In this document: positions 8,345-28,135 of the stretch, piece by piece
Layout of the letters: each line of letters begins with the position of its first letter
Numbering within the stretch: the first letter of the stretch is position 1
Assembly: GCA_016930515.1 (NCBI GenBank)
Contig: JAFGGO010000046.1
Span: 1-28,135 of the forward strand
Source of the DNA: Promethearchaeota archaeon
Lineage (GTDB): Archaea > Asgardarchaeota > Lokiarchaeia > Sigyniarchaeales > SOKP01
Direction: 5' to 3'
Length of the DNA stretch: 28,135 bases
Made by a program: the position numbers and the translations under genes
Notes under the pieces: generated by a model
What the model was told of the DNA's origin: nothing
Seen by the model: the letters and a program-made list of their open reading frames with translations, nothing else
Databases searched by the model: none

Positions 8345-9244
8345 TTAATTGTCCTTAAGAACGACCTCGTGGTGTTTTGACAGCAAATCGTGCTGGGACA
8401 CGTGCCTTTTTGGGTAATACCGCATGACGCCCATTGCTGCCGTTCGATTGGCGCCAACGTTCGTGAGCTCGCCCAAGGCACAGAGCGTTTCCAACCACCG
8501 GCATTTGTCCAAGTAGTCCTCGTTGACAAATTCGTAATCGTATGTCCTATCCATTTCTTTGAGCAAATGAACATAATACTTCCTGTTGATTTTTGAAACG
8601 CTATAGGAGGCGTTTCCCAAGCCACCAACCACAGGTTTTGGCTTGCCTATATTCGAACTCGCCGTTCGCATTTTATAACTACTCACGAAAACATGAGCGT
8701 TCACCCAATTTTGAAGCTCGCTAACATCGATTTCGCTCTCGTTTAGAACGATTTGATTCCAGATTCGAGCGAGGTTTCCAAAGATCATCACGGGAATCGG
8801 AAAACGGACTGGAAAATCCCCCATGCTCGTGTTAAAATACACGGGTCGCAGGAAATTAAGGCGGAACCTCGAAACGGGTTTAGAATCTACCAGAAATCTC
8901 TTGGGATTTATTCGTTCGAATTGAATGGACGATACATGATAATCTTTTTGGCCAAATGTTAGCTTGGATTTTTCTCCCGAGATTAAATCGTTAATCAATG
9001 CGTCGCTTATGTCGTCTTGATAGGCCACGAGCACGAACGTTAACATTGGCATTTTTTTTGACACGATGTAGTTGATTGAATAGGGCCTCACTTTTTCGTG
9101 AAGGTGGAGCTCGTGAACGAGTTCGGGCTTGATTTCGTGAAGCCATTTCATGATGACCCCTCGGAACACGTATCCGTAAGGGTGATCGTACGGCTTAATT
9201 CTACCGTCTTGAGGACATAGTTCAAATTTTAGCTTTATCATCAT
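8345..9244 (-). CDS. cas6: CRISPR-associated endoribonuclease Cas6
   Basis: VHELH...VRPYSI, LNFLRPVYF, RFPIPVMIFGNLARIWN, VVGGLG, C-terminal G-loop NVGANRTAAMG. Last gene of the I-D effector operon. Confidence 0.92.
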   Translation of the reverse strand: MMIKLKFELCPQDGRIKPYDHPYGYVFRGVIMKWLHEIKPELVHELHLHEKVRPYSINYIVSKKMPMLTFVLVAYQDDISDALINDLISGEKSKLTFGQKDYHVSSIQFERINPKRFLVDSKPVSRFRLNFLRPVYFNTSMGDFPVRFPIPVMIFGNLARIWNQIVLNESEIDVSELQNWVNAHVFVSSYKMRTASSNIGKPKPVVGGLGNASYSVSKINRKYYVHLLKEMDRTYDYEFVNEDYLDKCRWLETLCALGELTNVGANRTAAMGVMRYYPKRHVSQHDLLSKHHEVVLKDN

Positions 9245-9264: not shown

Positions 9265-11484
9265 TTATTGTAGGTAGAAATCGGCAATATAAGACGAATT
9301 TCCCAGATATAATTTCCATTTAAAACCATTTTTTCCACGATAGATAAAATATTTAATTTTCCAATCCAATCTCTTGCTAAAATTGGATAATCGATAAGGC
9401 AAATAATAATTCCTATTCTTTAATAGATCTTCAATGAACTTTTTGCTTTTTGTAGAATTCGCAAGAATCTCACTTTCAACTAGTTTTAATGGAATGTGGG
9501 GTCCTAATTGTTTGAAATAAAAGGTTTCATTTTTCGAATCCTTCGTTGAAAAAGACCATTTTTCTGGTTTCTCTAAAATCTCGTGGACGATAATGACGAC
9601 CTCTGATTCTAAATAAGAAATCCAGCGTGCAGGTATCTCATTAAAGAGATCTTGATCTAAGTCTTGAATGGATTTCAGGGAAAACGAATAAGATTGTAGT
9701 TCGCTCATTTCAATTAGATCCCATGTTTTGTAATTCTCGTAATAAGCGAGAAATGTGATTAAAGTCCCCCTACACGATAGAAAACTGATGGCTTGTTTTA
9801 GCGGATTGGTACTAAAAAATTTAAAAGCGTCGTCAATATCGCGCGATCCTTTCATTAGTTTACCGTGGTATTTTATTTCCGGAAGGCTTCCTATTATGCC
9901 CTTTATTTTTTCTCTTAAAACTTTTCCGCTCACGACGAAGTCTCTTTTGTAATAGTCGTAATAGTCGTGAAAAATGAGCGAACCAAAAAAGGGCACGGAA
10001 AATTTTAAAAATTGCTCAGAGAACAGGAAATCGATCAATAAATCGTCGGCAGGGACGACGTTTTTCAACGCCGCGCCTAATTCCTGAAGGGATTGGCAGC
10101 CTTTCGTTCGTTCAATTTTTGACACGGTTTCAGTAGATACCATCGAATACGCAATGCAGGATTGAAACCTTCCTCCTCTGCCCAAGCGTTGAAAAAACGA
10201 ATTGTATTCGTTCCCTTCGAAGATTAAAAAGGGCACGTTAAAATCAATCCCTATTTCGATCGCTCGCGTTCCAATAAGTATTGCGTTTTTTGATTGATTT
10301 CCATTGGCCCTGATGTCAAAACGCTCCGATTTGGGTAAGAGGCCGTGAATCCGGTACACATTTTCACCCTTATTTTTTGAATCGAGAAATTTCTTTAGTC
10401 CTAAATACAATTTTTCAGAAAACATGACGGAATTTACGATAATCAATAACTTAACCGGGAAATGTGCTCGTCCTGCCTCGTACTCTCTTGAATTAATCAC
10501 GTTCCAGATTAACTCTAGCGTTTTTTTCAGGTCGTCCTCGTCAAATAAAATGTTATTGTGTTCCACGAAATTTAGTTGGGTTGGATGTCGTATTTGAAAC
10601 AGCTCCCTGTCTTTTTTTAAATCGGAGAAAATGTCCGTTTGAATGTTTTCTACCCATCGTGGATCTGGAAAGCTTTCCCTGAAAACTGAAGCCATTTCAG
10701 AAGGCGTGGCACTCAAGAAGCCCATCCAAAAACTAGAATCGATATTCCCGCCAAACATTTGCTTGTGAAAGATTCGAACGATTTGAATGAGATACCCCAA
10801 TAAAGCACCGCCATAAAGATGGAACTCGTCAACAATCAAGGAATTCAAATTAAAAGCTTCCGGAAATAACCTTCGCGACGAATAATACTTGTGGCAAAAT
10901 AACAAGAAAATGAAATCAATATTTGATAAAACGATAAAATTCACGTTTAGATTGATGACATTCGTTATCAACGAAAGCAAGATCCTGCCTTTCGAATACT
11001 TCCTCTTGCCATTATCGAGGTCTGCAAAATCAGATAATGTTCTCGAATTTATTGGAATTAGAAACAAGAGGTCGTCCTTGCCTGCCCGTACGGTTTTTAA
11101 AATCGCCTTGTTAACGTATTCGTCCACGCTTGCTTCGAGGTTGGTGTTGACAGGCATGGAATTTTTAACGCTTTCTGAATCGATGACGAGCGATTTCCAG
11201 CCAATTTTCCTTATCAGGTCTTGAAGCGAGGAAAGCTGGTCCAATATCAACGAATTAGTAGGGTAAACTATCAAGCTTCTAATGCTTTCGTAAGAAAACC
11301 TCGATTCGTCGTGCAATATTTTTGTTAACCCTGCGAGAGTTTTTCCCGAACCCGTGGGCGTTTGCAAGAAGATATACTTTTTTCGCGATTCTAAAAATTT
11401 CTTTTGAAATTCGTGGAGTCTAAGAGTTCCAATGGAAAAATCAGTTCTTTCAATATAGGATGGTTTTATCTCTATAGAATTCAC
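9265..11484 (-). CDS. cas3: type I-D Cas3' SF2 helicase (no HD domain)
   Basis: QTPTGSGKT, YPTNSLILDQ, IVDEFHLY, LSATP, IIVNSV, RIHG, TRAIEIGIDF, FQRLGRGGR. The helicase starts at the N-terminus, so there is no HD domain. GTG start with RBS AAGGTG. Confidence 0.93.
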   Translation of the reverse strand: MNSIEIKPSYIERTDFSIGTLRLHEFQKKFLESRKKYIFLQTPTGSGKTLAGLTKILHDESRFSYESIRSLIVYPTNSLILDQLSSLQDLIRKIGWKSLVIDSESVKNSMPVNTNLEASVDEYVNKAILKTVRAGKDDLLFLIPINSRTLSDFADLDNGKRKYSKGRILLSLITNVINLNVNFIVLSNIDFIFLLFCHKYYSSRRLFPEAFNLNSLIVDEFHLYGGALLGYLIQIVRIFHKQMFGGNIDSSFWMGFLSATPSEMASVFRESFPDPRWVENIQTDIFSDLKKDRELFQIRHPTQLNFVEHNNILFDEDDLKKTLELIWNVINSREYEAGRAHFPVKLLIIVNSVMFSEKLYLGLKKFLDSKNKGENVYRIHGLLPKSERFDIRANGNQSKNAILIGTRAIEIGIDFNVPFLIFEGNEYNSFFQRLGRGGRFQSCIAYSMVSTETVSKIERTKGCQSLQELGAALKNVVPADDLLIDFLFSEQFLKFSVPFFGSLIFHDYYDYYKRDFVVSGKVLREKIKGIIGSLPEIKYHGKLMKGSRDIDDAFKFFSTNPLKQAISFLSCRGTLITFLAYYENYKTWDLIEMSELQSYSFSLKSIQDLDQDLFNEIPARWISYLESEVVIIVHEILEKPEKWSFSTKDSKNETFYFKQLGPHIPLKLVESEILANSTKSKKFIEDLLKNRNYYLPYRLSNFSKRLDWKIKYFIYRGKNGFKWKLYLGNSSYIADFYLQ

Positions 11485-11501: not shown

Positions 11502-12272
11502 TTAATTACCTCCATAATAGCCTGGTAGGGGTACGACATTAATTGGAATGTCAAAATCCTGGATGGACCCAACGAAATGAGGACCTTTTAAATCGCCTTC
11601 AGTTGCGATTTGTGTTGGCGTGCTATATTGCACGTTTAATTTTTCAATTTCGTAATTTTTCCCTATGCAAGAAAATTCAATGGCGTGATCTAACGAGAAT
11701 TTCGAACTGGAGCGCTTTAGAGCCGTAATTGGAAAATAAACCGCTCGACAAACGCAATGTTTTTTTCCCAAGCGAAAAATCGACGGTCCTTTACTGCCAA
11801 ATAAGACGCAATAATAGACCATTAACGGCACGAACTTTTCTTGGCTTCCAACGTTAGGAAAATTGTTTGAAGCCTTTTCCATTCCAAATAACAAGGATTC
11901 TCCAATGGCGTTGTATTGAAAATTAAGTGCGTGATCCACGAAATTTGCCATACTGTATTGTATCAAGTGGTCGCTTAGCAATGGATTTGATAAGATCTTT
12001 TGTTTATGCCGAAAATCTTTAAATTTTAGCGCGGGAGTCGCGACTCGGCGAATATTTCGAAAGTCTTGGTCATACATGGGTTTATCCGTCCCAATCGTTC
12101 TTTGGATTTCGTGTACTTCGGGATTTAAAGCGTAATTTAACGCATAATTAACGACGTAATCGGCAACGCTAGTCTTGGTGTTGTAATCAAAATGACTAAA
12201 AAATAAAAAATCGTGTGTGTAAAAAATCACGAAATAGATTTCTAACGGCTTTTCTTCGGTCTCAGAATTCAT
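11502..12272 (-). CDS. csc1: type I-D Cas5 (Csc1)
   Basis: HDFLFFS, NYALNYAL, ATPA, FRLGKK motifs; directly follows csc2. Confidence 0.9.
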   Translation of the reverse strand: MNSETEEKPLEIYFVIFYTHDFLFFSHFDYNTKTSVADYVVNYALNYALNPEVHEIQRTIGTDKPMYDQDFRNIRRVATPALKFKDFRHKQKILSNPLLSDHLIQYSMANFVDHALNFQYNAIGESLLFGMEKASNNFPNVGSQEKFVPLMVYYCVLFGSKGPSIFRLGKKHCVCRAVYFPITALKRSSSKFSLDHAIEFSCIGKNYEIEKLNVQYSTPTQIATEGDLKGPHFVGSIQDFDIPINVVPLPGYYGGN

Positions 12273-12309: not shown

Positions 12310-13242
12310 TTATTCGGTCACCTTTTCAATCAATGCATCCGCTTGAGCTTGCAAGGAATCGATCAGGGTTTTATTCAATTCAACTTGTTGCATTTCTTCG
12401 ATTAGCTTGTTGACATCTTCTCCTGAAATAACGGTAATGGAATTCGGGGTCGATGCTTTTTGCTTGTACTTCTTGAAAACACCGTCTAAATGATCTAGAA
12501 TTTGATTAAAAGTCGCGTTTTCCTCTCCGTTTAGAACGGTATTTAACTCCAATTTTAGTTCTAGCGGCGTCATGATTTCCTCGAATCCCCCAATAATTCC
12601 TAGAATCTCGTTTCGGCAATCCCCTTTAATTCTTGTTTCCGCTCCATAGCTCGTACACGAAAGGATGGTCTTCAAGAATAAAATAAATTCTTCGTATGTA
12701 ACTGATTTTAAAGTAACAATCGATGGAAAAAGAGAGAGCGGCTTAAAGTTGTGCGATATTCCAAGTGCTTGGCCTGTTCTCTGGTCTTGCTCGTCCACGG
12801 CGTTAAAAGTCATGATCTCGTTGATATCGTCAAAATTTTGGATCGAATATGCCGAAGAATATTCTACCCTATGCCTGATGTTGTATTTTCCTTTGGTCTT
12901 CACAGCACCGAATAAGACACATCGAGGACACTTCATGCACAGGTTTCTTGGTAAGAAGCAATTGATATCGCTAAATGTTCTTAAAATTTCCATGTATTTT
13001 CTCGATTCAACCGCTTTTTGCTTGCTTGCTAAAAATAATCCATAAACTTCGCTTTCAGTCGTATTTAGATTAGAAGGTAACTCAACTGTATTTAATTCGC
13101 GAGAATCTTCGGTTCTTAAAATCGTATAATCCAATACCTGGCGAATGAGTACTACTTGAATTGTTCTTGCGGTTAGAAATGGAGACAACTGGTCTACAAA
13201 ATATTTTCCTAATTTCTTCTTAATTATTGATTGGTTGCTCAT
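12310..13242 (-). CDS. csc2: type I-D Cas7 (Csc2)
   Basis: ILRTE, SKQKAVESR, C..CPRCVLFG, RVEYSSAYS, FNAVDE, FPSIVTL, YGAETR. Confidence 0.95.
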   Translation of the reverse strand: MSNQSIIKKKLGKYFVDQLSPFLTARTIQVVLIRQVLDYTILRTEDSRELNTVELPSNLNTTESEVYGLFLASKQKAVESRKYMEILRTFSDINCFLPRNLCMKCPRCVLFGAVKTKGKYNIRHRVEYSSAYSIQNFDDINEIMTFNAVDEQDQRTGQALGISHNFKPLSLFPSIVTLKSVTYEEFILFLKTILSCTSYGAETRIKGDCRNEILGIIGGFEEIMTPLELKLELNTVLNGEENATFNQILDHLDGVFKKYKQKASTPNSITVISGEDVNKLIEEMQQVELNKTLIDSLQAQADALIEKVTE

Positions 13243-13246
13243 TTTT

Positions 13247-13861
13247 TCATTCCTCGTTTTTATTTTTTTTCTTATTGTACGATTTCCAAAATTCGTCTAC
13301 TAATTCCTTATTTGAAACCTCAAAAGGGCTTGGAACATCTTCCATCTTACTTATATCTGAAACGTCTAAAACGTTCTGAATCTCCTCGAAATCTTCCTTA
13401 AACTTTTTCTTCAAGAATTCGCGAAATTTATTGTTAATGAAGTCTCTCTTTCCTTTCACGTCGCTTTTAAACGCCAAGAAAAAGACTTCGTAATCAATAC
13501 CATCAACGATTTTTAACCAAGGCAGTCCCTCGGTCATGTTTCTCAAATCTTCGAGCAAGCCAATGCTCGTATTTAGAGCTTCAATGGTATCAATGCTCAC
13601 GTATTCTTGATTGTTCCTGATGACATTTGTTATGTACCCCTTTACCATCCCCCAATCAATCATTTTTGTGGTCCTGATAAGAGTCAATAACTTGCCAATG
13701 GCATTCATTAACGAGTATTTCGAGGGTCTCGGGCTTGAAGATTGGATCAAGAGACCCGAATGTACTTCTATTAACGAATCTATAATTTCTGCTCTTTTTT
13801 GTTGAACTTCTGGTTTTTTGAGAAGCTGAACTTCGCTTTTATTTTTCATTAAAATTGGCAT
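13247..13861 (-). CDS. probable separately encoded type I-D small subunit (Cas11d-like)
   Basis: All-helical 204 aa between cas10d and csc2 (5- and 4-bp gaps), with its own RBS AGGTGA. PSKYSLMNAI...GYI resembles the Cas10d C-terminal/Cas11d region, which the upstream cas10d appears to lack. Confidence 0.65.
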   Translation of the reverse strand: MPILMKNKSEVQLLKKPEVQQKRAEIIDSLIEVHSGLLIQSSSPRPSKYSLMNAIGKLLTLIRTTKMIDWGMVKGYITNVIRNNQEYVSIDTIEALNTSIGLLEDLRNMTEGLPWLKIVDGIDYEVFFLAFKSDVKGKRDFINNKFREFLKKKFKEDFEEIQNVLDVSDISKMEDVPSPFEVSNKELVDEFWKSYNKKKNKNEE

Positions 13862-13866
13862 CTTTT

Positions 13867-16485
13867 TTATTCACCTAACACGGTTAATACATCATTTATT
13901 CTTTTTCTTCTATTTTCATTTTGGAAAAAATAGTTTAATATATATCCTCTTGATTTGTTAAACATTTTTAAGACAAACCCTTGCTCTGAATCGGGATCCA
14001 TGGATTCTAAGGCAAGTAGTTTCGATATTTTTCGAAAGATTGTCATGCGATTCGAAATAGTAACGATTTCATTAGAACGGTTATTCACGCCCATCGTTGA
14101 AAACAATTCTTGACAAATTTTAGCGAATAATCCTGGTTTTGGAATGTCAACAAGCGTTTGAGATTCGGTGAGTTCGACATGATTGAGCGAATTTATCAAT
14201 TTTATCCTGCTAAAAAATAATTGGCTTAATAAAATCCCGAACCATAATTTTCTAAGATATTTTATTGAAGCAGAATCTTCCTTATTACCTATTTCGTATC
14301 GAAAGAAAATTAACACATAATCAGGAGTGCTGTAACTATAAGTGACGGTACTTTTCTGTGGAATGTGAGATAATAACTCGCGATCGTCTACGTGGTTATT
14401 AAGGATTGCGTCTACTAATTCCGTCGTATTGTCAACCTTTATTTTTATCGATTTTCCCCATAAATCCAAGAAATCTTCGAAATTGTCAAATTTTTCTTGA
14501 ATCCACGATTCTAAACCCTTCTTGATCTGTTTTTTTTTATCCTTACTGACGAGGCGGTTTTCGAGCAAGGTATTTTCTGAAACATACGAAAGATTTTCGA
14601 TTGCTATTTTCTCAATTGCTTTTGCGAGCGTTTTATGGTTTAATATGTTGATCGATTTCATTTTCTCGTTTATAAACACCTCTATTTTGTTCTTCCATTG
14701 GTGTTTTACTGCGGGCGTCATGTTAAGTTCTGGATATATTAAAATGTACGAATTTGGGACGTCTCCCATCATGATATTTCTCAACAACGATTCAAACCTA
14801 CAAGCAGAGCACACTTTTGCGGAATATTTATCCCCAAATCCAACGCCCCCGGGTAGCTTATTGGAAAACGATCGTGGTCCCTTTCCGATCAAACCTTCAA
14901 GTGCAGTTTCGTTGGTGGGAAAATTGCAAAATGAACATAAATATTTTTTTTCGCCTTTAGAATCCAACATGTCTTTCATGGTCTTACAAAATTCCTTTTT
15001 TTTCGAATTCATGGCAGAAAAATTTGGATAAATGATGTCCGTATCTAAAATGTCAAATATTTCCTCGTCTATCAAGGGCGGCGTCTCGTGTTTTTTAAAA
15101 AAGGCAATGGTATTTTCGATCAACCATTCTTGAAATAAATCGTTAAAATCACCTTGTTCAATTAATTGGAAATGATCTTGTTTAGGACGACTTTGAATGT
15201 AACTTTTCCATAATTCTACCATCATTTTTATTTTTGGTAAGCGTTTTGCCCCGTTTGAATAACCACTATCTATGAGTGACTCATCAATACCAAATAGCGC
15301 ACTAATTAATCCCGTGCTGTTAATGCTTGAATCCCATTGCTTGATCTCCTTCAACAACGATCCCCAAAAAACAAGAGGACTTCTCCATCTTTTATATTTC
15401 TTTATCAAAACATTTTGGTTAATGTCAAACAATTCAGTTTGTTCTATAAGATACGGACCTAGATTTTCTGATGATCCTTTTGCTTTTTCAATTTCTTTTT
15501 GAAAAGCTATAATTTCTTTTTTTAAATCTGATTCCTTGACCGCGTATCCTTCTTCTAATTTTCTTCTAATTAATCCTTCGTTCAATAAACACGGCTCTAA
15601 TACGGGAGTAGTTGTAACTGAGCCGTAAATTGCATTATAGATATTATCAAAATATTCTGGATTTGCAATAATTTTTTTACATTTTTTTAAAACAATATCT
15701 TGAAGATTTGCAAATTGAATTTTTTCTGGATTTTCACTATAATATATTACACCATTAGCAAAACTTAGCAATGGGAAATAATTCGCTTGTTTATGAAGCT
15801 CTATCAATGCTTCACTAAGTATAAGTGATAATATTCCTCTGAATTTCGAAATTTCATGGTATGTAAAATGGACATCTTTAATGAATTGTTGTATCATTTG
15901 ATTTCTATTGATTGTATGAAATACACTACTTATTTTTTTATTTGAAACTAAGGAATCAACAAAATTTACTAAATGCGCAACTCTTTGTGGTCCTTTTAAA
16001 CCTTGACAATCGTTTAATACTCTACCAAAATTTGGTACTTCGTGATAACATATACCATTTTTTACTAAAAATATTAATTCCTCCCATTCTGAACCATCCT
16101 CTTGAAATAAATTAGGAAATGATTTTTTAATTTTCGGTTTTAACATGTCTAATATTTCTTCTACTTGGTTTAAAATAGATTTGTTAACATGGTTATAGGA
16201 TTCCTTATGGGATGAATTATTATTCACAGCATTTTGAAATTCATCATCAGATTTCCCAATATCTGAAAAAAAACTACTTATAATTGACGCTATTTTTTCA
16301 ATCTCAGAGATTTTTGCATTAAATGCATCAAGTTTGAAAAATTCAAGGAATATACTTGCTTGATTAATACTATGTATTAATAAACTCTGATCTTTTGTGT
16401 GTTGATGATTCCATTTAGCGTACTTATTTTGCCAATCTAGTTTTATTCCAACATCAATTAGGATTTGAATCAGATTTTGATACAT
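13867..16485 (-). CDS. cas10d: type I-D large subunit Cas10d (Csc3) with N-terminal HD-type domain
   Basis: DQSLLIH, FSDIGK (HD position), YH, FVD; FTYHEISKFRGILS; Zn finger CSFC...SFSNKL...VCSAC; LIYPE. No GGDD motif. Confidence 0.92.
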   Translation of the reverse strand: MYQNLIQILIDVGIKLDWQNKYAKWNHQHTKDQSLLIHSINQASIFLEFFKLDAFNAKISEIEKIASIISSFFSDIGKSDDEFQNAVNNNSSHKESYNHVNKSILNQVEEILDMLKPKIKKSFPNLFQEDGSEWEELIFLVKNGICYHEVPNFGRVLNDCQGLKGPQRVAHLVNFVDSLVSNKKISSVFHTINRNQMIQQFIKDVHFTYHEISKFRGILSLILSEALIELHKQANYFPLLSFANGVIYYSENPEKIQFANLQDIVLKKCKKIIANPEYFDNIYNAIYGSVTTTPVLEPCLLNEGLIRRKLEEGYAVKESDLKKEIIAFQKEIEKAKGSSENLGPYLIEQTELFDINQNVLIKKYKRWRSPLVFWGSLLKEIKQWDSSINSTGLISALFGIDESLIDSGYSNGAKRLPKIKMMVELWKSYIQSRPKQDHFQLIEQGDFNDLFQEWLIENTIAFFKKHETPPLIDEEIFDILDTDIIYPNFSAMNSKKKEFCKTMKDMLDSKGEKKYLCSFCNFPTNETALEGLIGKGPRSFSNKLPGGVGFGDKYSAKVCSACRFESLLRNIMMGDVPNSYILIYPELNMTPAVKHQWKNKIEVFINEKMKSINILNHKTLAKAIEKIAIENLSYVSENTLLENRLVSKDKKKQIKKGLESWIQEKFDNFEDFLDLWGKSIKIKVDNTTELVDAILNNHVDDRELLSHIPQKSTVTYSYSTPDYVLIFFRYEIGNKEDSASIKYLRKLWFGILLSQLFFSRIKLINSLNHVELTESQTLVDIPKPGLFAKICQELFSTMGVNNRSNEIVTISNRMTIFRKISKLLALESMDPDSEQGFVLKMFNKSRGYILNYFFQNENRRKRINDVLTVLGE

Positions 16486-16567: not shown

Positions 16568-17275
16568 TCAATTTTCTTTATATTTACACACATAGTAAAA
16601 CGGAAATGGTTTTATGCTATAGTATATAGTTTTGTGACTGATTTTTTCTTCTTCAATAAATCCACAATCTATCATTTTATGCAATTTTCGATATACAGTA
16701 GATCTGTCTTTTGAGATATTGAATTCTTCTTTTAAATGATGCATTATTTTTTTAATTGAAATTCTTTCCTCTGGATTTTTAAAACATAATAATATTTTAA
16801 ATTCAAAATTGCTTAAATTTAAAGATACTTGTTCCAATGGAATTTTTAATATTTTATCACTATTTTCTAATTTAATAAAAGCTTCTGTTATGGGAAAAAA
16901 TAGACTGGCAGTATATGTTGCTAATACAATATTTTTCATCCCTCCAGAAATATTAAGAAAAACAGGCATATTTTCACCTATTTTATAAATTTCATTCATT
17001 TTTTCAATTAATACTAAAACGGATTTCCAATAGGGATCAATTGGGATAAATAAAAATTGATGGATGATTTCTATCTTAATTGATCGAAATTTTTGTAAAT
17101 AATGATTGATACTTCTTATTTGGGGATATTCAGATTCAATTGGATTAGGAAGAATGATATAAAGATAAATTTGATTGAAATCGACCTTTTTTGAGATTAA
17201 ATCGAAAATTACTTCTGATATAATCAATTCAGGAGAAAACCCTAAAGTCGCAATTAAAACTATTTTTTTTTTCAT
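16568..17275 (-). CDS. csa3: CRISPR-associated CARF + wHTH transcriptional regulator Csa3
   Basis: LIATLGFSPE, FLNISGGMKNIVLA, HTH KDRSTVYRKLHKMIDCGFIEE. Confidence 0.88.
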   Translation of the reverse strand: MKKKIVLIATLGFSPELIISEVIFDLISKKVDFNQIYLYIILPNPIESEYPQIRSINHYLQKFRSIKIEIIHQFLFIPIDPYWKSVLVLIEKMNEIYKIGENMPVFLNISGGMKNIVLATYTASLFFPITEAFIKLENSDKILKIPLEQVSLNLSNFEFKILLCFKNPEERISIKKIMHHLKEEFNISKDRSTVYRKLHKMIDCGFIEEEKISHKTIYYSIKPFPFYYVCKYKEN

Positions 17276-17405: not shown

Positions 17406-18542
17406 TTAGTAAATTAGTATTCTTAAATTATTATGAGAAAAGAATGCGAAGGATTTATTAATTTGACCATGTTCTATGTAAATCTCTTGAGATTCACATT
17501 CTCTTACAAATTCTAGTAAAGAATCACTATCAGGATGATCGCTTAGTGATAAATAATAATCTACTGGAAATGCTTTTCGAAATGACGCATCAATTACCTT
17601 TCCAGAAAATATTGCGGTTTGCGCTCCATTCGAAATTAACTGTTCATAGGGCTTTTTAAACATTGTATATGGTGGTGCCAACAGAAGATAATCGTTTCTT
17701 CTTATTAATTCTCTCTTATCGTGATCGCCATAGGGTTCCCATTCGGGAAATAAAATACCGTTTCCCTCTAAAATTTTGACGACACTTGCGATGGTCTTAT
17801 CAAGGAGAATCAATTTATCAGGAGCCTCAATCGCTTGTAATAGAACCTGGCTTTTTCCAAAAGCGTATCCCAAAAGCATCAATGGCGTTCCCTTGAGAAA
17901 TTGATCGCTAATTAATGCGTTTATTTGGTGTAAGCTCTCTCTAAAAAGCGGAAATCGATAGCGTGGAGCACCAAAAGTGCATTCAGTTACGAGAATATCG
18001 CAATGGCGGGGTTTTAATCCCTTGATGATGCCCCTATTCTTTGGCAAGATTCGATCTTCAGTCATAAAATCGCTCGTATAAAAAATCGACTCGGAACCTT
18101 CGATGAAAAGGCTTAGAGAACCGTAAGCATGTCCGTTTTCCATGATCGTTATATCAACGCCATTAATGCTTATCTTTTGACGTCCTGACGAATTGTTACC
18201 TAAAATCCATAATTCTTCTGGGATCGAAAAACGGCCATGGGTCCTCAGTTCGGCAACTTCTTTCGTTATTTTTGATATGATAAATCTTGGAAGGGACGCT
18301 CCCTTTTGATGCAACTTGTCTAAATTTCTAGGGAGAGATGGAACGTGGTCCATGTGAGCGTGTGAGACGAATATAATGTCCGCGTGTGGATTCCAAGAAT
18401 CGACTGCTATTAAAACACAATCGATGTGAATGTATTTTCCAAATCGCTGGTCTTTACCAATATCGATGGAACTCCTTTTTATTTTATGCGATTTCGATAA
18501 TTGTTTCATTTCTTCGCAAAAACTTGCCAGATCGCTAAACAC
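17406..18542 (-). CDS. metallo-beta-lactamase fold, beta-CASP family nuclease
   Basis: SHAHMDH, GHAYGS, YTSDF, TECTFG, YAFGKSQ, LSDHPD, IEHG. Start codon uncertain. Confidence 0.9.
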   Translation of the reverse strand: MFSDLASFCEEMKQLSKSHKIKRSSIDIGKDQRFGKYIHIDCVLIAVDSWNPHADIIFVSHAHMDHVPSLPRNLDKLHQKGASLPRFIISKITKEVAELRTHGRFSIPEELWILGNNSSGRQKISINGVDITIMENGHAYGSLSLFIEGSESIFYTSDFMTEDRILPKNRGIIKGLKPRHCDILVTECTFGAPRYRFPLFRESLHQINALISDQFLKGTPLMLLGYAFGKSQVLLQAIEAPDKLILLDKTIASVVKILEGNGILFPEWEPYGDHDKRELIRRNDYLLLAPPYTMFKKPYEQLISNGAQTAIFSGKVIDASFRKAFPVDYYLSLSDHPDSDSLLEFVRECESQEIYIEHGQINKSFAFFSHNNLRILIY

Positions 18543-18599
18543 GTCAATGTTATAGTCATTACTTTCTCTCGTCTTGCATCAGACCTCGCTTTTTTAAAT

Positions 18600-19307
18600 T
18601 CAGCCGAAGCAATATTTTCGGCACTCGCAATCCACGCACTTTCCCTTATCTTCGGTCGGGAGCGGGATCGCCTCGGATTTCAATAATTTCTGAATTTTCC
18701 TCACGACCTCAATGCAGTCCATCTTGTCGTCAATAGCGAGCTCGTAATCCACGACTTGCTGGTCCTTGATGTAATATATCCGCGCTTTAGTAACGGCGAA
18801 GTCGAAGTTCTTTTCTATCAAGATCGCTTGAGCGACCACTTGCAATTTATGCGAGAAATTCAAGCCGTTTGGAGGCACGTTTCCAGACTTGATTTCGACG
18901 GGAAAGGCCGCGTTTCCGTCGTACTCGAAGTAATCTATCAGGCCTAACAAGCCCAAATCGGCGTCCGTCAGGAACACGTTGTAATATTTTTGAGAATATT
19001 CCTCGCTCGTCGAGTTTTTCATCTTTTGGAGTTCCTCGTGCTTTTTCTGACCGTACTCCATTTTATAAGTCTTTAACATTGGCGCCCTGAGCACGTGCCG
19101 AAAATACAGGATTCGATGGCAATAGGCGTATTGCCGCACGTCTTCCGTGCCAACCAGTGGTTGGTCGTATAAATTAAGTCCCGGATACAACGCTCGCAAC
19201 TCTTGAAATTGATACCTGTTCAATTGGTATTCTTTTAACGGACGCTCGTTTCCTTGGGCCATGTTAATATTCACTTCGGGTAGATTTTCCATTTTCTTTT
19301 TGTTCAT
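18600..19307 (-). CDS. cas4: CRISPR-associated exonuclease Cas4
   Basis: YAYCHR, GLIDY, PVEIKSG, QVVAQ, C-terminal CVDCECRKYC (Fe-S cysteines). Confidence 0.95.
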   Translation of the reverse strand: MNKKKMENLPEVNINMAQGNERPLKEYQLNRYQFQELRALYPGLNLYDQPLVGTEDVRQYAYCHRILYFRHVLRAPMLKTYKMEYGQKKHEELQKMKNSTSEEYSQKYYNVFLTDADLGLLGLIDYFEYDGNAAFPVEIKSGNVPPNGLNFSHKLQVVAQAILIEKNFDFAVTKARIYYIKDQQVVDYELAIDDKMDCIEVVRKIQKLLKSEAIPLPTEDKGKCVDCECRKYCFG

Positions 19308-19333
19308 TTCGTTTTATTTATGACGGGAATCTT

Positions 19334-19618
19334 TCACATCGACAAGAGGTCTTCGACTATCTTGTATCCTTCGCCAAATTTCGACTTGATCGTTACGACA
19401 TTCGCGTGGCATTGCTTGCAAACGGGAATGATCCGCACGTCTCCTGGCACCTTCTTGAGCAATTTTTCCAGCTTGAGGGCTACTTCTTCTGCCAAGTTTT
19501 TCGTGAGTTCTCCGAAGAAAACCGAAAAATTAAGCCGGACGAGGTTGTACGATAGTAAAATGTTTGAGATTTTCGTCCTCATGGGATCGAATTCAACGGG
19601 AATGTCGTATATTACCAA
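19334..19618 (-). CDS. cas2: CRISPR-associated protein Cas2 (true start may be ACG at 19627)
   Basis: VIYDI, RTKISNIL, RLNFSVFFGEL, DVRIIPVCKQC; lies between cas1 and cas4. Confidence 0.95.
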   Translation of the reverse strand: MVIYDIPVEFDPMRTKISNILLSYNLVRLNFSVFFGELTKNLAEEVALKLEKLLKKVPGDVRIIPVCKQCHANVVTIKSKFGEGYKIVEDLLSM

Positions 19619-19649
19619 GAATTTCGTTTTATTATCACCTCGATTTGCC

Positions 19650-20741
19650 TTACCAATTCATTTTAAACGGTTGATATTCGGAGGTCGCTCCAATAAGAAA
19701 GTTCGCCACTTTTCTCGCTTGCTTGACCATTGTTTTCTTGTAATTAATCCTTACTTGACCCTTGGTCGTTTCATTCTCCGTGGGAACTTCGGCTTGGTTT
19801 CCAAACAGCTCTTGAGAAGTGTCGCCTCCCATTATTTCCTTGCGAAGTTCCTTGTAAAATACTTTTCTGGGATCGTCCTTTAATTGATAGCCGCGAAACG
19901 TCTTTTGAAAATCATCTTTCTTGATAACGCCTTTCTGAAGCAACCTAACCACGAACCTATCTACGATGGGTTGCCTGAACTCTTCGAGCAAGTCGAGAGC
20001 GAGCGAAGGTTTTCCCGACCTGTCGCTATGTAGGAAGCCTCCGTAAAGTTCCAGTCCTGCCGCAGCAATGGCGGTCGTCACGTGTCCTTGAAGTAACGTG
20101 TATCCAAGCGAAAGCAACGAGTTCACGGGGTCTTGAGGGGGACGGCGCGTGCGTTCGAAGGTCCTGATATCTTTTGGCAGCGCAATTCCGTAATTCGTGA
20201 AATATATCGCAGCCGCTTTCCCCTCGATACCCATGAGTTCCATTCGGACATTCGCAATTCGCTCTCCTTTAGCCTTCGTCTTGGAGAACTTGAGCAAGGC
20301 GTCGATCATCGCGCCAAGCTTTCGGGCCGCCGCTCTTAAAGTAGCCGATTTGCCTGGTTTCGCTTTTTTTCGGTTTTTAGCCAAGTAGAGCAGCAACCTC
20401 CTCTTGTTTTCGATCGTGGAATACACGAATCTTATCGCCATGTGAAGCCCTCGCCAGTCGTCGTACGCCAGGGTTTGCTGGCGCCTCGTGAACACGGTGC
20501 CCACGCTGGCAAACGGCGTGAAAAGTCCAAACGGCTTTCCGAACGAGGTATAGACGATGTTTACGGCGTTCGAAGCCAAGGCGTATAAGGCTTGAGACGT
20601 GACTTGCACGCTTTTATCAACGATGATACTCTCGATTTCCCTGAGGGGAATCTCCACGGAAGGAGCGTTAAAAACGTCAAGCTTGATGAGTTCCTGCTTT
20701 TTACTTATTCTCGTACCAGGCGTTTCCAATATCACGTCCAT
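19650..20741 (-). CDS. cas1: CRISPR-associated integrase Cas1
   Basis: LMGIEGKAAAIYF, RTRRPPQDPVNSLLSLGY, GFLH, SLALDLLEEFR; RBS GAGGTGA. Confidence 0.98.
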   Translation of the reverse strand: MDVILETPGTRISKKQELIKLDVFNAPSVEIPLREIESIIVDKSVQVTSQALYALASNAVNIVYTSFGKPFGLFTPFASVGTVFTRRQQTLAYDDWRGLHMAIRFVYSTIENKRRLLLYLAKNRKKAKPGKSATLRAAARKLGAMIDALLKFSKTKAKGERIANVRMELMGIEGKAAAIYFTNYGIALPKDIRTFERTRRPPQDPVNSLLSLGYTLLQGHVTTAIAAAGLELYGGFLHSDRSGKPSLALDLLEEFRQPIVDRFVVRLLQKGVIKKDDFQKTFRGYQLKDDPRKVFYKELRKEIMGGDTSQELFGNQAEVPTENETTKGQVRINYKKTMVKQARKVANFLIGATSEYQPFKMNW

Positions 20742-20766
20742 TTTTCATTGTTCACCTCGCATTTTC

Positions 20767-22152
20767 TCAATAAAATTGCCTCCCAATCAATTCTTTCATG
20801 TTCAAGACAACCGGAGCTTCCCTAAAGCGGGTTTTCACGACGAGAAACGATCCCGCAGCCCATAAAACCTTTTGTATTTCCAAGACTTCGGTGCTTTCTT
20901 CCAGCTTCAAGACTTCAAATAGATTCAGGAGGCCAAATCGTTCAAGATATTCAAGATACGACTCGTCTGCACGATTTGCACGATTTGCACGATTTGAAAG
21001 ATTCGCAAGATCCTTGTCGATTAAAATCCGAATAATTTCAAGAACATCTGGCGAACTCGAATTTTTTCTCGAACTAATAGATTCCATCGCATTAAATCCG
21101 TCTTGAAGCGCCGTTTCCAATGTAATCTTGATTTCCTTATCGATGGGGGGAAAGTAATTAATGGTTTCTATTAATTCAATGTCGTCGAACTCAAGTCGTT
21201 GAACGAGCTTCTGAACCATGGTTCTTAACGGTCTTGACATCGCCGTTATTCGAGCTCTCAAGAAAGAAGAAACCTCTCGATTGACACGGTAATTTAGATA
21301 GGCGTGAAATAACCAATAGTGAAACGCTCGATGGATCCAAGCTTCGCTTGCCCGTAATTGCGAGTCAAGGAGCAGGGTAATTTGAGCGCGATTCCTGCCT
21401 GTTTCGTCATCGTCGTAAAATGTTGTTGATAATGCTTCTTGAATTTGTGGAACGATTCTTCGTAATTCTTCCAGGTTTAAAATGCGCTGACGATAACCAA
21501 GAATCACCCCAAAAAGACCCCCTACTTGTATCATCCGATATTTTATAGTGTCCCGCAAGCCAACAAGAATCACGACATGGTCGCCGTCCATTGAAATTAA
21601 ACCAATAGCGTGGTTCTTCAGGCAAGGGTTCGTTACTTCTCCATTGGCTGGAAAACCACAGCTCGGACGGAGAAAATCCTCGCACGGTTCTTTTTCCACA
21701 TCATTTTGGATTTCGCCTTGATGTTCAAGTTCTTTTTGAAATTTGGAGCCCTGAACGGCAATTATTTTTCTTTTTACGCTTTCCTGACATTTAAAATAAT
21801 CGTAATAAAGCCTGGAATGACATTCTTCGCACAGTGCCAACGGAACTCGGTTGTTATCAAAAATATCGTTTCCATCGATTCTTGTTTCGCACGAACCACA
21901 ATATTTTTCGGGAGAAAAACACGCTTGAATCGTGCCATAAAACAATCCCAGTTGAGAGGTATCTTCGCGAGCAGTTGCGTCCACGTGAGGAAAAAATCGG
22001 CCTATAAAAGGTTTATAGACCATTCGCTTTATAAGGTGTCCTGGATGATTTAATTTTAAAGCAGATTCCGCAAATTGGGACATTTTATCGCCCTTAAGTA
22101 CTTCAGATCCCTGAACAAGATCGCCTTCCCTTGATTTAATCGAATTTAACAT
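20767..22152 (-). CDS. Cys-rich hypothetical protein, divergent DUF2797-like
   Basis: KYCGSC...LCEEC...C...PCLKNH...KYRMIQVGG and C-terminal AAGSFLVV...VLNMKELIG parallel the DUF2797 layout as I recall it. Ends 25 bp before cas1. Confidence 0.55.
   Translation of the reverse strand: MLNSIKSREGDLVQGSEVLKGDKMSQFAESALKLNHPGHLIKRMVYKPFIGRFFPHVDATAREDTSQLGLFYGTIQACFSPEKYCGSCETRIDGNDIFDNNRVPLALCEECHSRLYYDYFKCQESVKRKIIAVQGSKFQKELEHQGEIQNDVEKEPCEDFLRPSCGFPANGEVTNPCLKNHAIGLISMDGDHVVILVGLRDTIKYRMIQVGGLFGVILGYRQRILNLEELRRIVPQIQEALSTTFYDDDETGRNRAQITLLLDSQLRASEAWIHRAFHYWLFHAYLNYRVNREVSSFLRARITAMSRPLRTMVQKLVQRLEFDDIELIETINYFPPIDKEIKITLETALQDGFNAMESISSRKNSSSPDVLEIIRILIDKDLANLSNRANRANRADESYLEYLERFGLLNLFEVLKLEESTEVLEIQKVLWAAGSFLVVKTRFREAPVVLNMKELIGRQFY
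20968..20996. repeat. in-frame 9-bp tandem repeat (TGCACGATT x3.2) encoding NRA-NRA-NRA
   Basis: Directly visible; an adjacent TTCAAGATA x2 at 20941-20958 encodes YLE-YLE. Confidence 0.85.
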
Positions 22153-23044: not shown

Positions 23045-26000
23045 GTGGAAAAGTATAAAGCTTCAGAAAGAAGATTGAAATTGCTTAACTATTTCTCTCC
23101 CAAAAATATTTGGTGAAATGTGGAAAAGTATAAAGCTTCAGAAAGAAGATTGAAATATCCCTCGCTATTTAAGCTCGCACGCATCATTTTCTAAAGGTGG
23201 AAAAGTATAAAGCTTCAGAAAGAAGATTGAAATGAAAAATCGATACCAATAACTTTTAGGAGCGGCATTGTGGAAAAGTATAAAGCTTCAGAAAGAAGAT
23301 TGAAATCTTGACGCAGTAGGCGTTCGTGATGTTGATGTTGAGGTAGTGGAAAAGTATAAAGCTTCAGAAAGAAGATTGAAATCCTGCCGAGGCTCTTGAG
23401 TTCCAGCTTGTCAGTGAAGTGGAAAAGTATAAAGCTTCAGAAAGAAGATTGAAATCCTCTGGAATCTCCTCTGTCGCTTCGTCAAAGAGCTCGTGGAAAA
23501 GTATAAAGCTTCAGAAAGAAGATTGAAATGAAAGAACCTTTCCAAATTACCTCATTTCTCTCATCCAGTGGAAAAGTATAAAGCTTCAGAAAGAAGATTG
23601 AAATCAAAAATTTCTTAAAATATTGTCATTATCAAATTCGTGGTGGAAAAGTATAAAGCTTCAGAAAGAAGATTGAAATAACTGGACATGGAACAATTCT
23701 TCCTGATAGGTGACGAGTGGAAAAGTATAAAGCTTCAGAAAGAAGATTGAAATGCAACTGCAAACAAGGAACCAAAACCAAATTGGCTATGTGGAAAAGT
23801 ATAAAGCTTCAGAAAGAAGATTGAAATTTTGGTACGATAAACAGAAAATCTTGATCGCCCCATGTGGAAAAGTATAAAGCTTCAGAAAGAAGATTGAAAT
23901 AGCGCATCTACTAATTTACTCACGGGAATCTTAATTATGTGGAAAAGTATAAAGCTTCAGAAAGAAGATTGAAATCTGATCCCATGACACCTTGAACTTC
24001 TCCAAGCATTATGTGGAAAAGTATAAAGCTTCAGAAAGAAGATTGAAATAAATGCGAACAAGACATGATATTCATGGGATTAATACCAGTGGAAAAGTAT
24101 AAAGCTTCAGAAAGAAGATTGAAATAAACCCAAGAATTGTAGCTCTTCTTTTCTTGACTTCCAGAGGTGGAAAAGTATAAAGCTTCAGAAAGAAGATTGA
24201 AATATAAAATAGGGGATGCCGTCTATAAGAGCGCTGCGGGAGTGGAAAAGTATAAAGCTTCAGAAAGAAGATTGAAATAAAGGAAATACAGACTTACAAA
24301 AAAAAGATCAATTGATGGTGGAAAAGTATAAAGCTTCAGAAAGAAGATTGAAATGGTGAAAAAGCTTGCGATCAAGCGCAAGCCAGGACCGGTGGAAAAG
24401 TATAAAGCTTCAGAAAGAAGATTGAAATGAAATTGAAGAAGATGTGCGAAAAGGAAAGGGAATGAAAGTGGAAAAGTATAAAGCTTCAGAAAGAAGATTG
24501 AAATAGTGGGATTTCATTTACGAGAACCTCATGGGCGAGAGTGGAAAAGTATAAAGCTTCAGAAAGAAGATTGAAATTCCTCTAATTCTAGCGAAATATT
24601 GTCAAATTTTTTATCAAGTGGAAAAGTATAAAGCTTCAGAAAGAAGATTGAAATTGATTTTGACAAAAAGTTTTGAATATCTTTCGTTAATCCATGTGGA
24701 AAAGTATAAAGCTTCAGAAAGAAGATTGAAATCCTAAAACCCCAAACGTGCAACCGTTAAACATTGAGTGGAAAAGTATAAAGCTTCAGAAAGAAGATTG
24801 AAATTATAACCCCCTTTACCAATGGACGGATACGCAATGGAGTGGAAAAGTATAAAGCTTCAGAAAGAAGATTGAAATGAATCGTTTATGATGTGAGTTC
24901 CAAACCTATAATCGATCGTGGAAAAGTATAAAGCTTCAGAAAGAAGATTGAAATATATCGAATTTAACAAATCTTGAACGGAAATTCCGATTTGTGGAAA
25001 AGTATAAAGCTTCAGAAAGAAGATTGAAATTATTAAAGTTTCTTCCCGTAATGCCCGCTTTTAAACTAGTGGAAAAGTATAAAGCTTCAGAAAGAAGATT
25101 GAAATGATCCAGATTTAGCAATTTTAATAAATTTCCATTTTCCAGTGGAAAAGTATAAAGCTTCAGAAAGAAGATTGAAATCCTTCCTTAAACTCGCGTA
25201 AAGTAGGGTATTTCTTGGTGGAAAAGTATAAAGCTTCAGAAAGAAGATTGAAATTTACGGCACGATGTACGAGCATTCGGGAAGGCTCGCTCGTGGAAAA
25301 GTATAAAGCTTCAGAAAGAAGATTGAAATTTTTTATGTAGTTATATTTTCTCATTTTTTTTTACCACGTGGAAAAGTATAAAGCTTCAGAAAGAAGATTG
25401 AAATAATATGCTTTAGGAATTTTTGCCTTGTTTTTTATGGTGGAAAAGTATAAAGCTTCAGAAAGAAGATTGAAATAATCGAGAAACATTCATCCCAAAT
25501 TTATGATCGTCTAAGTGGAAAAGTATAAAGCTTCAGAAAGAAGATTGAAATCCGATTGCGCCCGCAAAACCAGAATATTGTTTGGACGGTGGAAAAGTAT
25601 AAAGCTTCAGAAAGAAGATTGAAATGAGAGTAATTTATAGAATCCAGGTGTCGCCCGAATTGTGGAAAAGTATAAAGCTTCAGAAAGAAGATTGAAATTC
25701 CAGTGCGTTCGTCTTGTAGAGCGTGCCCTCGCGCTTGTGGAAAAGTATAAAGCTTCAGAAAGAAGATTGAAATCAAACAAAAGGAGGAATTAATCCTCCA
25801 CTAATTTCTTTGTGGAAAAGTATAAAGCTTCAGAAAGAAGATTGAAATATACGCAATCACAGAATTCTGGGAGGGCATGAAATAATGCGTGGAAAAGTAT
25901 AAAGCTTCAGAAAGAAGATTGAAATACACAATACCTTGTGCTTGGACGGTTATCGAGACAACGTGGAAAAGTATAAAGCTTCAGAAAGAAGATTGAAATT

Positions 26001-27045
26001 TAGCTGGAATATCTGTACCTTGAACCTCATCGTGAGTGGAAAAGTATAAAGCTTCAGAAAGAAGATTGAAATTTAGCATCCTCTCGATAGTCTCGTCCCA
26101 CGCGGGAACGGTGGAAAAGTATAAAGCTTCAGAAAGAAGATTGAAATCAACGTAATTAAAAGGGAGGTTTAGAACTGCCCGAATGTGGAAAAGTATAAAG
26201 CTTCAGAAAGAAGATTGAAATCTTTTAGCGGTTTGGCGTTAGAGGACTCGGACATCGATGTGGAAAAGTATAAAGCTTCAGAAAGAAGATTGAAATACGA
26301 TACCCATCGTATCGAGGGGTAAAAATAAAGTTTAGGTGGAAAAGTATAAAGCTTCAGAAAGAAGATTGAAATTTTATGGTTTTCCCTTCCTTATTTACTC
26401 GGTCATCGTTTGTGGAAAAGTATAAAGCTTCAGAAAGAAGATTGAAATATACTACTTTCGAAGTCCAAGATTATATACATATTGAAGTGGAAAAGTATAA
26501 AGCTTCAGAAAGAAGATTGAAATCGATCCTGTTCGTGTGTATTGGCATCCAATTAGATTTGTGGAAAAGTATAAAGCTTCAGAAAGAAGATTGAAATCTC
26601 AAAATACGGGTTGCCGTCGTACATGCCACTCACTCGTGGAAAAGTATAAAGCTTCAGAAAGAAGATTGAAATAACAATATCATTAGATATTACACGGGTT
26701 ATACTACTAGTGGAAAAGTATAAAGCTTCAGAAAGAAGATTGAAATAACCGCATACGTGGCTTGTGCGATCGTTGGTCTAGCGTGTGGAAAAGTATAAAG
26801 CTTCAGAAAGAAGATTGAAATTTTAACAATATCCATCCATACGTAAAATTATCCATTTGTGGAAAAGTATAAAGCTTCAGAAAGAAGATTGAAATGAATG
26901 TACGAATGAAAAAACCTGATAAAGTTATCGTACGTGGAAAAGTATAAAGCTTCAGAAAGAAGATTGAAATATCACATAAAATTGTTTTTTAATAAATATC
27001 ATGATTAAGTGGAAAAGTATAAAGCTTCAGAAAGAAGATTAAAAA
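23045..27045 (+). CRISPR. CRISPR array 2: 54 repeats / 53 spacers, repeat GTGGAAAAGTATAAAGCTTCAGAAAGAAGATTGAAAT (37 bp)
   Basis: 53 identical copies plus a terminal copy ending ATTAAAAA at 27009-27045; spacers 35-41 bp; same hairpin as array 1. Confidence 0.98.
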
Positions 27046-27102: not shown

Positions 27103-28068
27103 TTATGTATTTATCATTTTTTGAAGAATGAGGGGCATAGAAATGATATCGAAATAATTATGTTCGATGCAATATTTCATCAAACCACCATTATTTCTTG
27201 GATTTTCCAAATATTTTCTATAATATTTTCCTATAACACTTCCATTAATGTCTCCTTTCCTATATATTTTTAATAATTTTTGCTCGACATTTGTCAATGA
27301 AAATCGATTAATCTCGTTTTTAAACAAGCGTCGACAATTATGATACAAATCCACATGATGGAACAGAAGTGAATTGGCTAGAAATGAACACTCATTGTAA
27401 TCACTTATGGGATCTTCATCAAAATAATACCTAAAGCGATTTTTAATAAATGGAATGTCGAAACTTTTACCATTATAACTAATAAGACACTTGAAATTAG
27501 GAAAAATTTTACTACGCAAATATTCGCAAATCGAGATTTCCTCCTCAAATTCCCTAGCGAAACAAACTCGCACATCAAAATTGGATTGGTTAAAAAATCC
27601 AATCCCAACCATGATAATTGGTTGAAAATATAATCCCAATGTTTCGATGTCAATGAATAATAAGTCTTTTTTTTGGAAACAAAAAAGTAAATCTAAGTCG
27701 TAGATATTATCGTGCTTTAAAAGCTTTTCAAAGTCCTTATTTTCTATTTGATTTAAAATCTCGTTAGCAGGACTTTGGAATCCTAAATGATATTTTAAAT
27801 CTTTAATGGTGTTAATACCCTTATTTCTTAAGGATTTTTCTGTTTTATTCCCAATATTAGAGATTGTCTCAAGCTTATAAAGCAAATTTTTTCTGGTTTG
27901 CTTTAATTGCAAATTATCATCAATTTTTTTTTGCCATCTAAATTGTAAAAACGATCCCATTTGATTTTGGAGGATTTTATTGTTGGGATAAATTTCTTCA
28001 ATTTTTTTTCCCCGATATTTTTCGAGAAAATAAGAAATATTAATATCGTCATTTGGAACCTCGGTCAT
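27103..28068 (-). CDS. YprB-like RNase H-fold (DEDDh) 3'-5' exonuclease with HhH motif
   Basis: FIDIETLGL, SYNGKSFDIPFI, HVDLY, SLTNVE, HNYFDI; HhH ISNIGNKTEKSLRNKGI. ATG at 28068 is preferred over TTG 28101 because of RBS AGGAG 8 nt upstream and TTTATAT near 28110-28116. Confidence 0.88.
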   Translation of the reverse strand: MTEVPNDDINISYFLEKYRGKKIEEIYPNNKILQNQMGSFLQFRWQKKIDDNLQLKQTRKNLLYKLETISNIGNKTEKSLRNKGINTIKDLKYHLGFQSPANEILNQIENKDFEKLLKHDNIYDLDLLFCFQKKDLLFIDIETLGLYFQPIIMVGIGFFNQSNFDVRVCFAREFEEEISICEYLRSKIFPNFKCLISYNGKSFDIPFIKNRFRYYFDEDPISDYNECSFLANSLLFHHVDLYHNCRRLFKNEINRFSLTNVEQKLLKIYRKGDINGSVIGKYYRKYLENPRNNGGLMKYCIEHNYFDIISMPLILQKMINT

Positions 28069-28135
28069 TTGGTCTTCTCCTAAAGGTGAACATTTGTTCA
28101 ATCCTTTAGATATAAATCACATTGAATAAATTTAA

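Follow-up and report, generated by a model that had tools for sequence, protein, structure and literature searches.

We found that the large subunit, Cas10d, of an otherwise complete type I-D CRISPR-Cas locus carries serine in place of the histidine of its HD dyad, and comparison with its homologues showed this residue, Ser74, to be a genuine replacement of a metal-ligand histidine that had a single origin and has since been maintained by selection in a small type I-D clade whose hosts are apparently Asgard archaea. Our best reading of its consequence, to which we assign a probability of about 0.5, is that the HD pocket may be a metal site that has been remodelled but still works, supporting Cas3'-dependent DNA cleavage.

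The locus lies within the window (the whole stretch of DNA analysed, 28,135 nucleotides), in which ORF461, cas1, cas2, cas4, a beta-CASP gene, a csa3-like gene, cas10d, a 204-aa ORF, csc2/cas7d, csc1/cas5d, cas3', cas6 and a CARF-wHTH gene follow one another in this order, all on the minus strand. The effector genes and the regulator next to them have the following positions.

8345–9244, minus strand: cas6 (PF10040)
9265–11484, minus strand: cas3' helicase without an HD domain (TIGR03158, 115.5 bits, cut-off 69.1)
11502–12272, minus strand: csc1/cas5d (TIGR03159, 59.9 bits, above the cut-off)
12310–13242, minus strand: csc2/cas7d (TIGR03157, 120 bits, above the cut-off)
13247–13861, minus strand: ORF204, a putative Cas11d small subunit of 204 aa, immediately after cas10d
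13867–16485, minus strand: cas10d, large subunit of 872 aa with an HD domain at about residues 1–190 (TIGR03174, 62.6 bits, cut-off 60)
16568–17275, minus strand: csa3-like CARF/HTH regulator, between the adaptation and effector cassettes

The assignment of Cas10d, Csc2, Csc1 and Cas3' to type I-D was made with curated NCBIfam cut-offs, all of which were passed. Cas10d was identified as a large subunit of the Csc3 family with a Cas10-like fold by TIGR03174, by the match of its family profile to Synechocystis Cas10d 7SBA (E = 5e-33) and by Foldseek, whose top matches (7SBA_I, 6THH_C and 6YES) were the three solved Cas10d entries; its AF2 model had a pLDDT of 87.7, with values above 90 in the HD domain. 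Csc2 (Cas7d) and Csc1 (Cas5d) provide the backbone of type I-D, and the separately encoded Cas3' has intact GSGKT, DEFH and QRLGRGGR motifs. The initial annotation had described Cas3' as lacking an HD domain, which held: domain searches of Cas3' returned helicase domains only. Apart from the dyad the locus is complete, with cas1, cas2, cas4, Cas6 and two arrays present. The system therefore shares with known type I-D systems Cas7d, Cas5d, Cas6, the HD-less Cas3' helicase, cas1, cas2, cas4 and arrays, and its Cas10d shares with that of Synechocystis (7SBA) the fold, the zinc-finger cysteines and the N-terminal Cas3''-type HD motifs I, III, IV and V, whereas it differs from it in having serine for the dyad histidine (His115) and is only ~14% identical to it.

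A second difference from known type I-D systems is that Cas11d is apparently its own gene and not the product of an internal start in cas10d. ORF204 directly follows cas10d here and in 12 of 12 related loci, and the 872-aa Cas10d stops short of the Cas11 region, which does not fit a Cas11d made from an internal start. By fold, the ORF204 model agreed best with the Cas11 region at the C-terminus of solved Cas10d proteins (Z 9.0, 8.5 and 7.0), which, for a helical bundle, is suggestive but not conclusive evidence; matches by Foldseek alone were weak, and the ORF204 profile searched against PDB sequences gave only a spurious match to cytochrome c555. On the strength of the model and its placement, ORF204 is probably a stand-alone Cas11d, so that in this I-D branch Cas11d seems to have a gene to itself; in reviews, by contrast, its production by internal translation is described as conserved across type I-D.

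The HD-domain residues considered below are encoded at these positions.

16372–16374, minus strand: His38, HD motif I (QSLLIH), counterpart of Synechocystis Cas10d His81
16360–16362, minus strand: Gln42, one helical turn past His38, a candidate co-adaptation
16264–16266, minus strand: Ser74 (codon TCA), in the place of the dyad histidine and aligned to 7SBA Cas10d His115
16252–16272, minus strand: HD motif II, FFSDIGK (residues 72–78), with Asp75, Gly77 and Lys78 retained
16189–16191, minus strand: His99, HD motif III, aligned to the motif III histidine of type I-F Cas3
16042–16044, minus strand: His148, HD motif IV (CYHE), from the family alignment
15943–15957, minus strand: HD motif V, Asp177 to Ser181 (FVDSLVS), counterparts of Asp210 and His214 of Synechocystis Cas10d

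Residues 71–78 of this Cas10d (protein P0001, from the minus-strand ORF 13867–16485) read S-F-F-S-D-I-G-K, and are encoded by the codons AGT TTT TTT TCA GAT ATT GGG AAA at 16275–16252. The initial annotation had reported Ser-Asp where HD is expected, with the other likely metal ligands (in DQSLLIH, CYH and FVD) remaining; its coordinates and codons were correct, and His38, His148 and Asp177 are all present. To place these residues on known structures, a profile of 50 full-length Cas10d family members was aligned to Synechocystis Cas10d 7SBA and to type I-F Cas3. In this alignment QSLLxH fell on QTLAAH (His81) of 7SBA, the family HDxGK fell on its LHDYDK (His115-Asp116) as well as on FHDIGK of type I-F Cas3, and family motif V (Dxxx followed by Ser) fell on GDVAVH (Asp210, His214) of 7SBA. 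In the cryo-EM structure of Synechocystis Cas10d, density runs without a break between His81, His115 and Asp210, enclosing a single divalent cation (PMC9123187). As Ser74 aligns to the cation-contacting His115, it stands in the place of a direct metal ligand. The H...HD...D ligand pattern of HD phosphohydrolases of the Cas3'' type is thus represented here by H38...S74-D75...D177, and the N-terminal Cas3''-type domain of this Cas10d has Asp75 and motifs I, III, IV and V in the absence of a complete dyad.

The initial annotation had raised the possibility that SD was a sequencing or indel artefact and that the true codon was CAT, a suspicion that draws on the overlap of the Ser74 codon with a homopolymer: the run of eight T at 16273–16266 ends with the first base of TCA. 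It had also proposed aligning the closest Cas10d homologues to see whether SD was conserved, and this alignment disposed of the artefact. Among 1.84 billion representative proteins, phmmer identified 108 members of the Cas10d family, and SD is present in six proteins of this family, P0001 and five others that are 30–81% identical to it and come from separate assemblies (NCBI, JGI and Logan). The closest of these, P0002, is an 81% orthologue that aligns without gaps over 872 residues and reads FFSDIGK, and the four further proteins (30–40% identity) read FLSDYGK, FFSDAGK, FLSDSGK and FFSDIGK, so that SD is conserved across all six members. Two of the five homologues have leucine ahead of the serine, and the same T run is therefore impossible in them. 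With serine present in five independently assembled homologues, we regard the artefact as refuted, and the chance that CAT is the real codon as negligible. Frameshifting or transcript slippage at the T run was considered separately and rejected, as loss of one T soon leads to a stop and the run is not conserved among the homologues.

Every other readable family member has histidine at the dyad (44 of 44 in the alignment, 75 overall), and a pattern of serine in six of six clade members against histidine in 75 others exceeds what chance would give. The six SD proteins formed a single clade in a maximum-likelihood tree (SH-aLRT 100), nested among HD-bearing relatives, and their distribution is thus explained by one change. 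The set comprises six sequences, and gene context was read for one of the six, the P0001 locus. When collections were scanned with the SD-clade alignment, the genome contigs held no SD-type locus (a fair negative for the SD clade according to a separate check), the viral contigs likewise held none, and the metagenomes returned HD-type relatives only; searches of 40 close relatives and of 400 genomes from the phylum also revealed no SD-type protein. The HD-type sister lineage (family f31, of the same phylum; metagenome loci L002–L005) has the same gene string cas1-cas2-cas4-cas10d-ORF204-csc2-csc1-cas3'-cas6, with stand-alone ORF204, but it reads F[LF]HDYQK with histidine and has neither beta-CASP nor csa3 between cas4 and cas10d.

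Conservation within the clade allowed us to evaluate whether the altered pocket is still under selection. Branch lengths in the SD clade total ~3.95 substitutions per site, over which an unconstrained site has a probability of ~2% of showing no change, and ten pocket positions (K24, H38, S74, D75, K78, Q84, H99, H148, D177 and S181) were all invariant, against 12.3% of columns overall. Invariant columns made up 14.2% of the HD domain and 11.7% of the remainder, and the ratio of HD-domain identity to that of the rest was 1.09, compared with 1.07–1.22 in four HD-bearing groups; by these measures the HD domain of the SD clade is neither decaying nor evolving faster than the rest of Cas10d. Invariance of the pocket over about four substitutions per site suggests that it still has a function, which need not be cutting. 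No new His, Asp, Glu or Cys has been gained in the HD domain of the clade. Besides Ser74, the only reliably aligned polar residue that is invariant solely in the SD clade is Gln42, which is glutamine in six of six members and in 3 of 44 others (the sister proteins have T, A, T and V), and it may compensate for the loss of the imidazole.

In the remodelled site that we favour, the first metal would be bound by His38, Asp75 and Asp177, and the place vacated by the imidazole would be taken by water, by the hydroxyl group of Ser74 or by Gln42, the residue specific to the clade; Asp75, His99 and His148 would still be available to bind a second metal. Such a complex could, with the intact Cas3' helicase, go on nicking and degrading its target DNA, though possibly less actively or with a preference for other metals. 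The side chain of serine is far shorter than that of histidine, which makes it impossible for it to take the same ligand position without rearrangement. We favour a working site because selection has retained all of the other ligands and the helicase, unlike in known dead systems; the ATPase/helicase motifs of Cas3', the full adaptation module and an array content with no match to the host (below) also speak for it, and a serine hydroxyl has been reported as a metal ligand in the HD domain of T. thermophilus Cas3 (PMC7689449). Against it count the direct contact of His115 with the cation in Synechocystis Cas10d (PMC9123187), as well as the finding that changing the HD dyad of S. islandicus Cas10d to alanines abolishes cleavage of double-stranded DNA (PMC7544194). 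Our literature search found no account of an HD nuclease that is active despite an SD dyad, nor any of degenerate Cas3 HD domains.

The loss of double-stranded cleavage in the dyad mutant equally underlies the main rival reading, a real if lesser possibility, namely that the HD site no longer cuts, that the pocket merely holds the displaced strand, a metal or Cas3', and that immunity proceeds by other routes. One such route would be stepwise cutting of single-stranded targets by Cas7d/Csc2, as Csc2 of S. islandicus cuts single-stranded DNA at 6-nt steps (PMC7544194); another would be a helicase-assisted block of transcription or replication resembling type IV-A, and in a third the crRNAs would be handed over to a type III-B complex whose genes lie in another part of the same genome. 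Biochemical results obtained directly on other Cas10d and Cas3 proteins point towards a dead site, and a search of the whole genome, which is 94% complete, yielded no further Cas3-type HD domain. Degenerate HD-GYP proteins and the nuclease-free interference of type IV-A provide precedents. However, a dead site leaves unexplained why all the other metal ligands, including His99 and His148, have stayed invariant over some four substitutions per site.

Natural changes of conserved Cas10d HD residues have a precedent in the type I-D CRISPR-associated transposons (McCAST, Hsieh and Peters 2023), from which cas3', cas1/2/4 and long arrays have disappeared as well (PMC9881144). This likeness supports a dead site, but the comparison with known nuclease-dead I-D systems also tells against it, because those lost cas3' and the adaptation genes, both of which are kept here. 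Moreover, the McCAST-type systems reside in Tn7-like elements, whereas the present locus retains cas3', cas1/2/4 and long arrays, and its window contains no Tn7-like genes (tnsA/B/C, tniQ) among the ORFs. If the HD site were dead, the arrangement would also resemble type IV-A CRISPR-Cas, which is nuclease-free and interferes in dependence on the DinG helicase, in having a crRNA-guided complex and a helicase with no effector nuclease; this is an analogy only, as there is no sequence relationship, and we know of no type I-D system for which the type IV-A mode has been demonstrated. We consider it less likely than not, though a serious possibility, that this is a chromosomal, non-transposon type I-D system whose HD domain does not cut, yet which keeps Cas3', spacer uptake and large arrays; its protection would then come from blocking with the aid of the helicase, or from the transfer of targets or crRNAs to a different effector.

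The content of the arrays bears on both readings. They flank the cas genes, on the opposite strand.

6123–7284, plus strand: CRISPR array 1, 16 repeats and 15 spacers
23045–27045, plus strand: CRISPR array 2, 54 repeats and 53 spacers

The 68 spacers reported by the initial annotation were recovered from these 16 and 54 repeats; all are unique, 35–41 nt long, and none matched the host genome. The lack of self-targeting spacers is weak evidence against a dead site, since a harmless binder would tolerate them. Megablast of the main array against a phage collection gave no protospacers or PAM. A degenerate repeat at the high-coordinate end of both arrays places the leaders at their low-coordinate ends. 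Repeats of the two arrays are variants with different 5' ends and different last bases (ATTGAAAC and ATTGAAAT). Just past the end of array 2 lies a 332-aa ORF with a domain of the RNase_H_2 superfamily (exonuclease-like; 27103–28101, minus strand), and at the other end of the window (373–4014, minus strand) lies the gene of a 1009-aa protein that has an NYN RNase domain of the Zc3h12a type at its C-terminus, beside a gene for a 201-aa partner.

The same genome (G000) encodes, on contig C89 (L048, 1–11050), a complete type III-B locus (Cmr1-6, Cas6 and a CARF protein) whose repeat, of the 30-nt class, ends in the same 8-nt handle ATTGAAAC as the I-D array repeat. Sharing of crRNA between the type III-B and I-D arrays is thus conceivable, and the shared handle lends some support to a dead site whose crRNAs are handed over; against this, the type III-B locus has flanking arrays of its own. 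A further CARF-wHTH regulator (HFX_2341-like/DUF6293) lies at 7379–8182 on the minus strand, and it and the regulator at 16568–17275 may couple the type I locus to type III-B cyclic-oligoadenylate signalling. A third contig (C79, L043) carries a reverse transcriptase-cas2-cas1-cas4 module with Csx15 and CARF proteins.

The initial annotation had also suggested that interference might borrow the nuclease encoded next to cas4, and had asked whether SD correlates with that beta-CASP gene. The gene forms part of the adaptation cassette.

17406–22152, minus strand: adaptation cassette of five genes
17406–18542, minus strand: beta-CASP nuclease with the full catalytic motif set
18600–19307, minus strand: cas4
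19334–19618, minus strand: cas2
19650–20741, minus strand: cas1
20767–22152, minus strand: ORF461

A takeover of target cleavage from a defective HD domain by this beta-CASP protein would be in keeping with its intact catalytic motifs, with its position in the same gene string as cas10d and with the absence of the gene from HD-type I-D loci, 12 of 12 of which form the compact operon cas1-cas2-cas4-cas10d-ORF204-csc2-csc1-cas3'-cas6. In addition, to judge by contigs that agree in length and source, those of two further SD-type proteins, P0002 and P0003, seem to carry a beta-CASP homologue as well, which would be consistent with the same cassette. However, ORF461-cas1-cas2-cas4-beta-CASP recurs as a fixed cassette in four related genomes (L039–L042) with no I-D effector there, and in the sole relative with a long enough contig (G023) it adjoins a type I-B effector with HD-Cas3, which indicates that the gene tracks the adaptation genes and the lineage of the host rather than the state of the dyad. 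Furthermore, a csa3 gene stands between beta-CASP and cas10d, and the beta-CASP copies of the P0001 and P0002 loci are only 46% identical despite 81% identity of their Cas10d proteins. The borrowing of this nuclease is therefore unsupported and we consider it very improbable; the protein is probably a spacer-capture accessory.

The histidine of the HD dyad is held to be indispensable in Cas3 and Cas10d nucleases and is the usual target of mutations made for dead controls. Here serine has been naturally fixed at this position, with the whole pocket long preserved, within an otherwise complete immune system. If the site cuts, as we favour, it would reveal that HD-type metal centres can be built in a manner not recognised before and might yield a type I-D effector with different metal needs, and type I-D is already in use for genome editing. 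If instead it does not cut, a complete type I system free of any transposon would for the first time have been found to lack its nuclease; it would constitute a natural nuclease-free defence in Asgard archaea and would bear on the origin of nuclease-free CRISPR systems, both type IV and transposon-borne.
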